A DNA stretch of 8,509 nucleotides, taken from IMG/VR virus record IMGVR_UViG_2648501784_000014. The stretch is one strand, 5' to 3'. Shown here piece after piece: positions 1-8,509 of this stretch; the first letter of the stretch is position 1, and each line of letters opens with the position of its first letter. Source of the DNA: a virus. Taxonomy: Monodnaviria; Loebvirae; Hofneiviricota; Faserviricetes; Tubulavirales. The notes below the pieces were generated by a model that was given only the letters and a program-made list of their open reading frames with translations, had not been told where the DNA came from and did not search any database. The position numbers and the translations under genes were made by a program.

Positions 1-374
<374 letters not shown>

Positions 375-885: not shown

Positions 886-3002
<2,117 letters not shown>

Positions 3003-3032: not shown

Positions 3033-3458
3033 ATGAATCAAATTTATGACAGTTTTCCGTTTCCTTCCCCTGAGGGTTTTACTGCAGGTATGACAATGGC
3101 GGGATTTTTTATTCACGCCACTGTCATAAATGATGAGGAGTTAAAACCCACGGGTTCTCATTATAACCCTGAGGCTAAACCCAAATATGCCATTGTTATT
3201 GGCTATCCGTATGAGGACCGAAAATTAAAAGTCCGCCGTGAGGAGCATGAGCGATTTTCCTGTACTGAGGAGGATTTTAAATTTTTTAATTCATGTCCTG
3301 ATTTGCAGGGCAAACCTGTTTATCTCACGGTGGATGTTAACTCATGGTCGACAGGCTCTGAACGTCATGGTGTCTGGTATCGTTTTATTTCCGGCTCCAT
3401 GAAACGTTTTGACGGTCAGCCGCTGGGTGCACTGCCCGCAGGTAAAGAAAAAGGCTGA
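3033..3458 (+). CDS. Hypothetical 141-aa protein in the gene-V position; candidate ssDNA-binding protein
   Basis: ATG 3033 with GAGGAG Shine-Dalgarno (3019-3024) at 8-nt spacing, starting 30 bp after the rep stop. Hydrophilic with several beta-like segments (FFIHATVIN, KYAIVIGYPY, KPVYLTVDVNSWS, HGVWYRFISGS). Function assigned by synteny only; no similarity to M13 gVp seen. Confidence 0.7.
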   Translation: MNQIYDSFPFPSPEGFTAGMTMAGFFIHATVINDEELKPTGSHYNPEAKPKYAIVIGYPYEDRKLKVRREEHERFSCTEEDFKFFNSCPDLQGKPVYLTVDVNSWSTGSERHGVWYRFISGSMKRFDGQPLGALPAGKEKG

Positions 3459-3462
3459 TGAT

Positions 3463-3603
3463 ATGTCTGACGCTGATTTTCTGAACTTTGTTTTATTTGC
3501 TGCGCCTGCAATGATTTTATTTTCTTCAGGTTTTGGCATCGGAATAAAACTGATTCGCGCCTGTGACTCACAAAGCATTACTGTTCAGCGTTATTATGAC
3601 TGA
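3463..3603 (+). CDS. Small hydrophobic protein (46 aa); putative minor coat protein, pVII/pIX-like
   Basis: ATG 3463 lies 4 nt after the upstream stop. Sequence MSDADFLNFVLFAAPAMILFSSGFGIGIKLIRACDSQSITVQRYYD has one predicted membrane helix. Position matches gVII/gIX of Ff phages. Confidence 0.55.
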   Translation: MSDADFLNFVLFAAPAMILFSSGFGIGIKLIRACDSQSITVQRYYD

Positions 3604-3766
3604 ATTTGATTTCAGCGGTGTTTTATCCGCACTGAATTCTGGCGTACAGGACGGAGAACTTTACTGGGCCGTTCTGTATGTCTGGATTGTCTGCTGGCTT
3701 CTTGGCTTTGGCCTTGGTGTTATTTTCACTCTGGTCTGCCGGATGTTCAGCGATGCTGTTAATTAA
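3596..3766 (+). CDS. Small hydrophobic protein (56 aa); putative minor coat protein, pIX/pVII-like
   Basis: ATG 3596 overlaps the upstream ORF by 8 nt (ending at 3603), suggesting translational coupling. MTEFDFSGVLSALNSGVQDGELYWAVLYVWIVCWLLGFGLGVIFTLVCRMFSDAVN has one membrane helix. The alternative upstream start at 3563 is less likely. Confidence 0.5.
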   Translation: MTEFDFSGVLSALNSGVQDGELYWAVLYVWIVCWLLGFGLGVIFTLVCRMFSDAVN

Positions 3767-3772
3767 TTTTAA

Positions 3773-4033
<261 letters not shown>

Positions 4034-4048
4034 TAGTTATTTAACGAC

Positions 4049-4072
4049 AGCGTCCTTCGGGGCGCTTTTTTA
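4049..4072 (+). terminator. Rho-independent terminator after the major coat gene
   Basis: Stem AGCGTCC (4049-4055) / GGGCGCT (4060-4066) with one G-T wobble, TTCG tetraloop (4056-4059), then a T-run through 4071. Same position as the strong gene VIII terminator in Ff phages. Confidence 0.75.
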
Positions 4073-4075
4073 ATC

Positions 4076-5503
4076 ATGCCAGGAGTGTTTTGCTTGATTC
4101 GTTTTATTATTTCGCTTCTGTTTTTGTTCTTTTCTTCGCTTTCTTTTGCTGAGGAGAAAGAAGATCCGGATAAGCTTGTTCAGTGTTTTGGCCGTTTCCA
4201 CTGCAGAACAGCTTATTCAGATGCGGGGGCATCGATTAAATTAGCCAGGGGAGCTGGTCATATTTATTGTGGTTCCGGTAGTTACGATGCGTGCTCCGGA
4301 ATAATTCATTATTGCGGTAATAGGCTATCAGACTCGTCTCAAGCGCCTTCCACCGTTGGGGTTTTTGTCCATGCCCGGTGGTTCGCATATAAAGTCTGGG
4401 ATTTAGAGAAGCGAGAGTGGAGTACCTGCACTCTTCAATATCAGGGTGGTGAGGGGGATTTGACACCTGAATATAATAAGCCGCCAACTGACGAGATTTG
4501 TCTTTCTCGTCCGGTTCTTGATGGTATGACTTTTCCTGGTGTTTATAAAGGTGATGACGGGACCCGTTATGTTAATGTGCAGGGGTGTATTTATGAGGCA
4601 ACCGGCAATCCTTTTATTTGTAATCCCGATGATGATACGGTTTGTACTGCCAACTGGAAACCAGTTGCTGTAGATCCTGCATTCTCCGATGATAAGGAGG
4701 ATGGCGGTAGCTCAGGTGGCGGCAGTTCCGGTGGTGGTAACTCTGGCGGCGGTAGCTCAGGTGGTGGCAGTTCTGGCGGTGGTAGCTCAGGTGGCGGCAG
4801 TTCCGGTGGTGGTAACTCAGGCGGTGGTAGCATAGGTGGTGGCAGTTCTGGCGGTGGTAGCTCAGGTGGCGGCAGTTCCGGTGGTGGTAACTCAGGCGGT
4901 GGTAGCATAGGTGGTGGCAGTTCCGGTGGTGGTAACTCAGGCGGCGGCAGCTCAGGTGGTGGCAGTTCCGGTGGTGGTAACTCAGGCGGCGGCAGCTCAG
5001 GTGGTGGTAGTTCCGGTGGCGGTAGCTCAGGCGGTGGCAGTTCCTCCGGCGACGGCTGGCTTGGTGATATTCTTGGCTGGTTGCAGCGTATTTGGGTTTC
5101 AGTGAATGATTTAAATAATGCTTTTTCTGTTTCTCAGGATGATATTACCAGTGCGGTTAGTTCTTATGATTCACAGTTAAATGAATTAATTCATTCTGTA
5201 ACGCCTGAACAGGATGATATGTCTTCATTTGCTGACAGGCTTTTCAGCCTTCTTCCTGATGAGTGGCTTTATATTAATTTTGATAAATTACTTTTAACTG
5301 GTGAACTGCGTCGTTCTGGTGCTCAGCCAGTTCAGATTGAATTTCCGGGAATAAATGGGTTGTATTTTACAATTGACACATCTGATTTTGCTTCAGTTTA
5401 TGATGACATTATCAGGCCTTTATTAGAGTATGCTCTTTATGCATTAACGACTTTGCGTTGTTATTTTATTGTTCGTCGTGTTCTTTTTGTTGACAGGGGG
5501 TAA
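4076..5503 (+). CDS. gIII: Adsorption/minor coat protein pIII-like (475 aa from ATG 4076)
   Basis: N-terminal signal peptide, Cys-rich N-terminal domain, 116-aa Gly/Ser linker, and a C-terminal domain (PVQIEFPGINGLYFTIDTSDFASVYDDIIRPLLEYALYALTTLRCYFIV) resembling the M13 pIII C-terminus (recalled). ATG 4076 has no clear Shine-Dalgarno; in-frame TTG 4094 sits 8 nt after AGGAG (4081-4085) and is an alternative start. Confidence 0.8.
   Translation: MPGVFCLIRFIISLLFLFFSSLSFAEEKEDPDKLVQCFGRFHCRTAYSDAGASIKLARGAGHIYCGSGSYDACSGIIHYCGNRLSDSSQAPSTVGVFVHARWFAYKVWDLEKREWSTCTLQYQGGEGDLTPEYNKPPTDEICLSRPVLDGMTFPGVYKGDDGTRYVNVQGCIYEATGNPFICNPDDDTVCTANWKPVAVDPAFSDDKEDGGSSGGGSSGGGNSGGGSSGGGSSGGGSSGGGSSGGGNSGGGSIGGGSSGGGSSGGGSSGGGNSGGGSIGGGSSGGGNSGGGSSGGGSSGGGNSGGGSSGGGSSGGGSSGGGSSSGDGWLGDILGWLQRIWVSVNDLNNAFSVSQDDITSAVSSYDSQLNELIHSVTPEQDDMSSFADRLFSLLPDEWLYINFDKLLLTGELRRSGAQPVQIEFPGINGLYFTIDTSDFASVYDDIIRPLLEYALYALTTLRCYFIVRRVLFVDRG
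4703..5050. repeat. Tandem 15-nt periodic repeat encoding about 23 GGG(S/N)(S/I) pentapeptides (pIII linker)
   Basis: Near-identical GGT GGC GGC AGT TCC-type units; the peptide NSGGGSIGGGSSGGG occurs twice. The opposite strand reads as ELPPP repeats, which explains the spurious ORF at 4591-4908. Confidence 0.9.
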
Positions 5504-5505
5504 TA

Positions 5506-7076
<1,571 letters not shown>

Positions 7077-7157: not shown

Positions 7158-8509
<1,352 letters not shown>

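Follow-up and report, generated by a model that had tools for sequence, protein, structure and literature searches.

We analyzed an 8509-nucleotide (nt) stretch of DNA, hereafter the window, that represents the complete genome of an Escherichia coli inovirus with terminal redundancy (unit length 8135 nt), and we focus here on two small open reading frames (ORFs), ORF46 and ORF56, that lie between the gene at the gene V (gV) position and the major coat protein gene. Taken together, the sequence comparisons make it likely that this inovirus has its pVII-like minor coat protein in ORF46 and its pIX-like one in ORF56. They are most likely functional equivalents of pVII and pIX, they are probably also remote homologues of these proteins, and the most fitting description of the pair is that of a divergent enterobacterial form of pVII/pIX that has no name yet and lies outside the curated family models. 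The initial annotation of this DNA had already noted that the pair fits the pVII/pIX tip proteins, and this assignment is now supported by the gene order, by the linkage to the structural module, by homologues in related prophages, and by the way in which the family profiles pair with those of the Ff-type proteins.

Both ORFs are present as initially annotated, from ATG 3463 to TGA 3601-3603 and from ATG 3596 to TAA 3764-3766, and they encode the proteins MSDADFLNFVLFAAPAMILFSSGFGIGIKLIRACDSQSITVQRYYD (46 amino acids, aa) and MTEFDFSGVLSALNSGVQDGELYWAVLYVWIVCWLLGFGLGVIFTLVCRMFSDAVN (56 aa). The single membrane helix that had been assigned to each of them agrees with the hydrophobicity (Kyte-Doolittle 15-residue maxima of 2.23 for ORF46 and 2.35 for ORF56; 1.7-2.55 for reference pVII/pIX) and with AlphaFold2 models. 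As the T-rich genome yields chance hydrophobic ORFs, such as an alternative-frame ORF at 3678-3794, selection was the decisive test. We compared 11 distinct natural variants, counted synonymous and nonsynonymous changes per frame, and applied a binomial test. The ratio was 6:3 in the frame of ORF46 and 0:9 in both other frames (p = 0.006), and it was 17:4 in the frame of ORF56 and 3:18 in both other frames (p = 4.5e-8). Both ORFs are under purifying selection, and this is the case in the called frames only. In close relatives, the NCBI PGAP pipeline calls both genes at exactly these coordinates as 'hypothetical protein'. The possibility that the ORFs are untranslated chance frames in a T-rich intergenic stretch that is rich in hydrophobic codons would agree with the abundance of hydrophobic alternative-frame ORFs in the genome, with the missing Shine-Dalgarno sequence of ORF56, and with the fact that gene callers miss the homologous ORFs in several relatives. 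However, the frame-specific purifying selection effectively refutes this explanation, both frames are intact in all 11 variants, and the amino acids of both proteins are conserved in relatives although the DNA has diverged past blastn detection, so that chance frames are extremely improbable. ATG 3596, and not the upstream GTG 3563, is supported as the start of ORF56 by aligned homologues that start with MFDFSE.. and MFDSSE... In the EC12 relative (L002 5627-6051), the gV-position gene is annotated as two fragments because a T-run has lost one base, and this looks like either a prophage copy in decay or a mistake of the assembly. We considered that EC12 might have a different first small ORF, and rejected this as an annotation artifact of the gV frameshift, since ORF46 is intact there but unannotated.

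The module to which the two genes belong is indicated by a mosaic inovirus in E. coli E400634 (L007, 5634-6489). Its replication gene and its gV-position gene are near-identical to those of the window (3033-3460), and the similarity ends exactly at the stop codon of the gV-position gene. Beyond this point, L007 has a different structural module with its own coat, pIII, pVI (DUF2523), pI, and pIV genes, and one unannotated 57-aa membrane ORF (6065-6238) is found ahead of its different coat gene. This break point indicates that ORF46 and ORF56 are inherited as part of the set of genes for the virion and its assembly, rather than with the replication genes. Some enterobacterial relatives possess gene II and gene V of the Ff type (PF05144/PF05155 in L104; PF05155 and PF02303 in L105), and the structural module therefore combines with different replication modules. 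An IS110 transposase adjoins the replication gene in L007.

The initial annotation had proposed a comparison with small ORFs at the same position in related inoviruses, and homologues proved to be conserved at both positions. With pI as the query, a protein search returned a graded series of relatives with 98% to 30% identity, the genomic contexts of which were inspected. Each locus with a pI that is 75% to 34% identical (L102, L109, L108, L103, L104, L105, L106, L107, L119, and L117) has a homologue of ORF46 and one of ORF56, both collinear with the window proteins and encoded at the same two positions. The hosts are E. coli, Enterobacter roggenkampii, Salmonella enterica, and Edwardsiella tarda, and L109, L117, and L119 come from unlabelled sequencing-run assemblies. 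The proteins at the pVII position (alignment A3) have an identity of 21-55% to ORF46, and F20 and G27 do not vary among them; their lengths are 28-35 aa (33 aa in L109), apart from one 80-aa form with an N-terminal extension. The proteins at the pIX position (alignment A4) are 23-50% identical to ORF56, with W30, G37, and F51 invariant; they have lengths of 50-58 aa, except for the 71-aa protein of L117, and in each of them the helix is preceded by about 20 residues. It had been noted initially that both proteins are larger than their M13 counterparts, which is correct, and the excess has two sources: an N-terminal extension of about 20 aa that is common to the whole family of the pIX-like protein, and a clade-specific 13-aa C-terminal tail on a 33-aa core in the pVII-like protein. 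In several of these genomes, the pVII-like and sometimes the pIX-like ORFs are uncalled (L104 3711-3812, L105 3682-3944, L107 2745-3013, L119 2136-2243), which leaves apparent 'intergenic' gaps of 180-360 nt. An exhaustive phmmer search of ORF56 against 1.84 billion representatives returned its own cluster, one 50%-identical 58-aa protein (P0090, E = 5e-9), and one spurious repetitive match. A word-indexed protein search with ORF46 and ORF56 found only near-identical E. coli relatives (at least 96%), and single-protein scans of viral contigs gave close relatives only, or nothing.

For a comparison with the Ff-type proteins, a scan with the pI alignment, using one genome per species, identified 75 loci with a pI that is 27-38% identical to that of the window. 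Hidden Markov models (HMMs) were seeded with pVII and pIX of M13, IKe, I2-2, and If1, and iterated over 1775 small plus-strand ORFs upstream of pI from 79 loci. In 47 loci these models identified a single pVII, and in 58 loci a single pIX. The two genes are adjacent wherever a locus yielded both, and most of the inspected pairs are overlapping or tightly spaced. Among the 1775 small ORFs, the top four phmmer matches of ORF56 are the pIX-position ORFs of L034, L039, L085, and L090, and the top match of ORF46 is the pVII-position ORF of L089. In profile-profile comparisons with hhalign, the ORF46 family matched Ff-type pVII with a probability of 66-77% (P = 2e-5 to 5e-5), a level that is not usually accepted alone for short membrane helices, and the ORF56 family matched Ff-type pIX with a probability of 57-64% (P = 7e-5 to 1e-4) over 38 columns. 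The crossed pairs reached 1.6-3.8% (ORF46 family with pIX) and 4-11% (ORF56 family with pVII). When columns were shuffled, the real score was reached in 1/200 cases for ORF46-pVII and in 0/200 cases for ORF56-pIX; the corresponding counts for the crossed pairs were 1/200 and 4/200, at much lower scores.

These pairings also bear on the question whether both proteins are part of the virion. The number of small proteins at the gV-coat locus is not fixed at two: there is one in L007, three or more are found in L034 (4685-5027; three), L106 (2073-2507; three), L117 (1954-2853; several), and at the L109 locus, and L109 has an extra, very hydrophobic 75-aa ORF (3648-3875) between gene V and the coat gene. 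This variation in number and size, and the weaker signal of the ORF46 family at the single-sequence level (shuffle p = 0.03-0.15), could mean that just one of these proteins belongs to the virion tip, while the other is a membrane peptide that serves assembly only or regulation and is not incorporated. We regard this as unlikely, as homologous proteins occupy both positions throughout the enterobacterial series, each family best matches its own Ff counterpart, and in f1 both pVII and pIX are structural, with five copies each (PMC10175506).

ORF46 resembles pVII of Ff, IKe, I2-2, and If1 (PF19978 Inovirus_G7P_2; phrog_7781, phrog_19107) in that its gene directly follows the gV position, and its start codon lies 4 nt past the gV-position stop codon, compared to 1 nt for M13 pVII. 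Neither ORF46 nor the Ff-type pVII proteins have a signal peptide; both start with an acidic N-terminus that contains a D-F motif, have a single hydrophobic helix, and carry a basic residue at position 32/33 after a G-x-G stretch of small residues. The core of ORF46 thus contains an acidic N-terminal region (D3, D5, F6), the hydrophobic helix, and K29/R32 at the predicted cytoplasmic end. F6 and R32 are as far apart as F7 and R33 in M13 pVII, and in the M13 cap the F7 residues form a ring at the top, whereas R33 is near the DNA and functionally important (PMC10480500). With the family alignment as input, AlphaFold2 predicted a single helix for residues 3-45 with a predicted local distance difference test score (pLDDT) of 86. 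ORF46 differs from the Ff-type pVII proteins in its length of 46 aa (28-33 aa in the latter), and the identity is about 20% or less. The 13-aa tail is found only in the clade with a pI that is at least 75% identical (window and L102), and its length is constant in 11/11 variants with S38I as sole polymorphism. The pVII-like proteins of L109, L108, L103, L105, L107, L104, and L106 end near residue 33, and in the relatives other than L102, which is the closest one, the two genes are spaced by -1 to +19 nt, in contrast to the 8-nt overlap in the window.

ORF56 in turn resembles pIX of Ff, IKe, I2-2, and If1 (phrog_10143, phrog_28333), the gene of which likewise lies directly 5' of the coat gene, and the start of which lies within the last nucleotides of the pVII-position gene (spacing of -4 nt in M13 and of -8 nt for ORF56). 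Both have a single long helix, an aromatic/Gly motif (W..GFG.G in ORF56, A-Y/W-x-x-G-W-x-x-G in Ff-type pIX), and a basic residue after the helix. In the window protein, the helix region has a W..W..GFGLG motif, and R49 is located at the predicted cytoplasmic end. The difference in length (56 aa versus 32-38 aa) is due to the conserved acidic N-terminal extension of about 20 residues. In ORF56, this extension contains E3, D5, D19, and E21 and no basic residue, and the nine other members of the pIX-position family all have an extension of comparable length. AlphaFold2, again run with the family alignment, predicted a short helix at residues 6-14 with low confidence and a long helix at residues 19-55 (pLDDT 86-94; overall pLDDT 81). 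ORF56 shares FGLGVI with If1 pVII and was therefore also considered as a pVII homologue, which was rejected because the profile comparison, the position, and the homologue series favor pIX.

Several results weigh against the assignment to pVII and pIX and have to be set against these similarities. No Pfam or PHROG family was found for ORF46 (E up to 1), ORF56, or eight family members; ORF56 showed only a sub-threshold match to Pfam DUF2798 (15 bits, cutoff 23.5). In the same type of scan, the control proteins were readily recognized: M13 and IKe pVII matched PF19978 at 1e-21 and 2e-17 and phrog_7781/phrog_19107 at about 4e-20 and 4e-18, and M13 and IKe pIX matched the PHROG models (phrog_10143/28333) at 3e-26 and 1e-23. 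The Ff-seeded HMMs also miss the window ORFs (E = 1-8; 1.0 bits for ORF46; 5.6 bits, E = 1.2, for ORF56). Relative to residue shuffles, ORF56 scored slightly above background with both models (p about 0.001-0.009), and no clear excess was seen for ORF46 (p 0.03-0.15). The hhalign probabilities are moderate, membrane helices inflate such scores, and the crossed pairs also exceed most shuffles. M13 pIX requires the acidic residue E29 (PMC10480500); at the equivalent place the window protein has D53, but the ORF56 family as a whole conserves no acidic residue there. R32 of ORF46 is not C-terminal in the window clade, as 14 more residues follow. Finally, RNA folding at both start codons was no better than that of shuffled sequences (z = -0.9, -1.2). 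Profile-sequence searches found no link between the enterobacterial families and the Ff-type families, PDB sequence profile searches with both alignments gave chance membrane-helix matches only and no f1 pVII/pIX chains, and a Foldseek search with both AlphaFold models against the PDB gave zero matches, as expected for single helices.

A different function of one or both proteins has to be considered in view of the Pseudomonas-type inoviruses Pf1 and Pf4, in which Pf1 orf30/Pf4 PfsE and Pf1 orf83 are small inner-membrane proteins encoded at the same two genomic positions as ORF46 and ORF56. Pf1 orf30, the PfsE homologue, directly follows the single-stranded DNA-binding gene and thus has the pVII position, and it is followed by an 83-aa ORF and then by the coat gene. 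PfsE of Pf4 (PA0721, 30 aa) binds PilC and blocks type IV pili (PMC8764522). ORF46 and ORF56, one or both, might by analogy be small inner-membrane accessory factors that target a machine of the host envelope, for superinfection exclusion or host modulation, instead of or besides being parts of the capsid, and the conserved, selected N-terminal extension of ORF56 that is absent from Ff pIX would agree with this idea, as would the failure of the curated pVII/pIX models. We nevertheless consider an accessory role to be improbable. Similarity to PfsE or Pf1 orf83 was not detected with the family HMMs (E of 10 or more), the two genes are co-inherited with the coat, pIII, pVI, pI, and pIV module, and the profile similarity is specifically to pVII and pIX. 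Moreover, an Ff-like phage needs leading-tip proteins, and there are no other candidates in the 8.1-kb genome. PfsE, with its demonstrated role in superinfection exclusion, has been reported to have its N-terminus in the cytoplasm (PMC8764522), whereas ORF46 and ORF56 are predicted to have the opposite orientation. Pf1 orf30 (L120 452-808 holds orf30 and orf83) contains a YAWGW motif that is reminiscent of A-Y/W-x-x-G-W in Ff-type pIX, but the HMM scores were not significant (E = 0.4-1.7).

The prediction of the orientation comes from the charge pattern, as both proteins have an acidic N-terminus and basic residues after the helix. This distribution predicts that the N-terminus is out and the C-terminus is in, as in f1, and the C-termini of pVII and pIX of f1/M13 face the DNA, with the N-termini at the tip (PMC10175506, PMC10480500). 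If ORF46 and ORF56 are the pVII-like and pIX-like proteins, each would insert into the inner membrane without a signal peptide, with the acidic N-terminus in the periplasm and with K29/R32 and R49, respectively, in the cytoplasm. Five copies of each would then form a cap together with the first coat subunits. This cap would recognize the packaging hairpin at the pI complex, displace the gV-position protein, and end up as the tip that leads the filament during extrusion. The tail of ORF46 (13 residues) would be directed inwards, to the lumen, and the 23-residue acidic extension of ORF56, which is predicted to face the periplasm, would lie exposed at the leading tip. Display fusions on pVII and pIX are tolerated at this N-terminal, tip-exposed end. 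It is conceivable, though doubtful, that the ORF56 extension is a functional module of its own, either a displayed tip peptide or a periplasmic segment that binds a host envelope component. In the latter form, it would contribute to superinfection exclusion or host modulation in a PfsE-like manner and from an equivalent genomic position.

The arrangement of the genes suggests how the two proteins may be produced. The ATG of ORF46 lies directly behind a double stop (GGC TGA TGA T ATG), and the second start was found, as initially described, within the last three codons of ORF46 (tATTATGACTGA). No Shine-Dalgarno-like sequence for ORF56 is present in the 18 nt upstream of 3596 (ttactgttcagcgttatt), and because of this and of its start inside the last ORF46 codons, translation of ORF56 probably depends on coupling. 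Genes V/VII and VII/IX of f1 are translationally coupled (PMC12548453, citing Ivey-Hoyle and Steege 1989, Blumer et al. 1987). A small hairpin that contains the ORF56 AUG exists and is not significant relative to shuffles, and the non-significant RNA folding therefore leaves the type of coupling that works by unfolding unsupported. Ribosomes that terminate at 3603 could instead re-initiate at 3596, and the ORF46 tail would carry the terminating ribosomes 5 nt beyond the ORF56 AUG. Expression of ORF46 and ORF56 would be kept low and stoichiometric by translational coupling. The coat gene starts 24 nt downstream of ORF56 and has its own strong ribosome-binding site, and its Shine-Dalgarno sequence would be the point at which the coupled block of low expression ends. 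In several relatives in which the pIX-like gene does not overlap with the gene ahead of it, this gene has a Shine-Dalgarno sequence of its own.

The genes around the pair occur in the order replication gene, gV position, two small genes, coat, terminator, pIII, pVI, pI, and pIV (Table 1). Apart from the replication gene, this layout is the Ff layout. A terminator follows gene VIII in Ff and IKe as well, and for IKe a stem-loop terminator is annotated at the corresponding site. The C-terminus of the coat protein, GFLSRAT, is common to relatives. The gV-position protein matches phrog_30648, a family of unknown function, over its full length, its match to Pfam Putative_G5P is weak and sub-threshold, and its putative function as the single-stranded DNA-binding protein is suggested by position only. 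In relatives with a GPA-type replication gene, this protein is kept at 140-150 aa; relatives with an Ff-type gene II have a gene V of 87-118 aa instead (PF02303 in L105). The pIII-like gene contains about 21 tandem 15-nt units at 4627-5106 that encode GGGSS/GGGNS, and the protein has 475 aa in the window versus 385, 432, 445, and 488 aa in close relatives; these length differences suggest that the repeats of the linker expand and contract. A divergent 62-aa ORF on the minus strand (666-854) matches phrog_2503 (function unknown, E = 1e-28) and occupies the place of repressor-type regulators in integrative inoviruses, and a second small minus-strand ORF lies beside it in the relative L008.

Table 1. 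Features of the window, and long ORFs at the pVII position of other prophages (last five rows; coordinates refer to the respective locus).
Feature	Position	Strand	Basis
Phage_GPA-type replication endonuclease	1002-3002	+	ORF list, Pfam/PHROG scans
gV-position gene, 141 aa; upstream partner for translational coupling	3033..3458	+	ORF list; phrog_30648 match
ORF46, pVII-position gene, 46 aa	3463..3603	+	ORF list, PGAP, selection, predicted helix
ORF46, 33-aa core	3463..3561	+	Collinear with 28-35-aa pVII-position proteins of related prophages and with Ff pVII
ORF46, 13-aa C-terminal tail CDSQSITVQRYYD and stop codon	3562..3603	+	Alignment with relatives
ORF56, pIX-position gene, 56 aa	3596..3766	+	ORF list, PGAP, selection, hhalign
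8-nt overlap ATGACTGA (ORF56 start codon and ORF46 stop codon)	3596..3603	+	Sequence
ORF56, N-terminal extension, residues 1-23	3596..3664	+	Alignment of family; 6:1 synonymous:nonsynonymous
ORF56, membrane-helix region, residues 24-56	3665..3766	+	Aligns with 32-38-aa Ff-type pIX; hhalign covers 19-56
Shine-Dalgarno sequence of coat gene (AGAGGA), strong	3780..3785	+	Upstream sequence ttgtcaaagaggaatttt, then ATG
Major coat protein gene, 80 aa including signal peptide	3791..4033	+	Weak PHROG 'major coat protein' matches
Intrinsic-terminator-like hairpin (4049-4066) and T-run, directly 3' of coat gene	4049..4072	+	Sequence
pIII-like protein with g3p N1 domain (PF05357) and Gly/Ser linker	4076-5503	+	Pfam scan
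pVI-like protein	5506-5862	+	pVI-like PHROG match
pI/Zot	5865-7076	+	phrog_1675 'protein I of M13', 6.6e-50
pIV secretin	7188-8396	+	phrog_1012, 1.7e-114
Long pVII-position ORF, L028	730-912		
Long pVII-position ORF, L032	4624-4824		
Long pVII-position ORF, L043	4635-4916		
Long pVII-position ORF, L095	1634-1795		
Long pVII-position ORF, L085	4553-4801		

The first and the last 374 nt of the window (1-374 and 8136-8509) are an exact repeat with a spacing of 8135 nt, and the window is therefore either a full circular genome or a piece of a tandem prophage array. E. coli chromosomes hold this genome at 96-98% identity, often as tandem prophage copies, and tandem copies are annotated in E. coli 700481. 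Among deposited phages, no match to the gV-position protein or to the ORF46/ORF56 region was found by blastn and tblastn, and with a best pI identity of about 35% in the phage collection, the sequence comparisons place this inovirus in a lineage that appears to have no deposited, annotated phage relative.

In several marine gammaproteobacterial prophages, the ORFs at the pVII position have 53-93 aa. Four of the five (L028, L032, L043, L095) have a signal-peptide-like N-terminus ahead of a pVII-like C-terminal helix, and that of L085 has a long hydrophilic N-terminal extension. These sequences suggest that the long ORFs may represent a cleaved or two-helix form of the tip protein that is missed by the Ff-seeded HMMs.

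In summary, the pair that likely represents pVII and pIX is an expected component of an Ff-like genome, and the understanding of filamentous phage assembly is unchanged by it. What is gained are names and starts for two genes that are labelled 'hypothetical' or missed by pipelines in prophages of E. coli, Salmonella, Enterobacter, and Edwardsiella, and the alignments A3 and A4 could seed family models for inovirus annotation. Proteins encoded at the leading-tip gene positions span 28-93 aa, as compared to the 32/33-aa paradigm of Ff, and this variation in length includes natural N-terminal extensions at the very end to which pVII/pIX phage display attaches its fusions.

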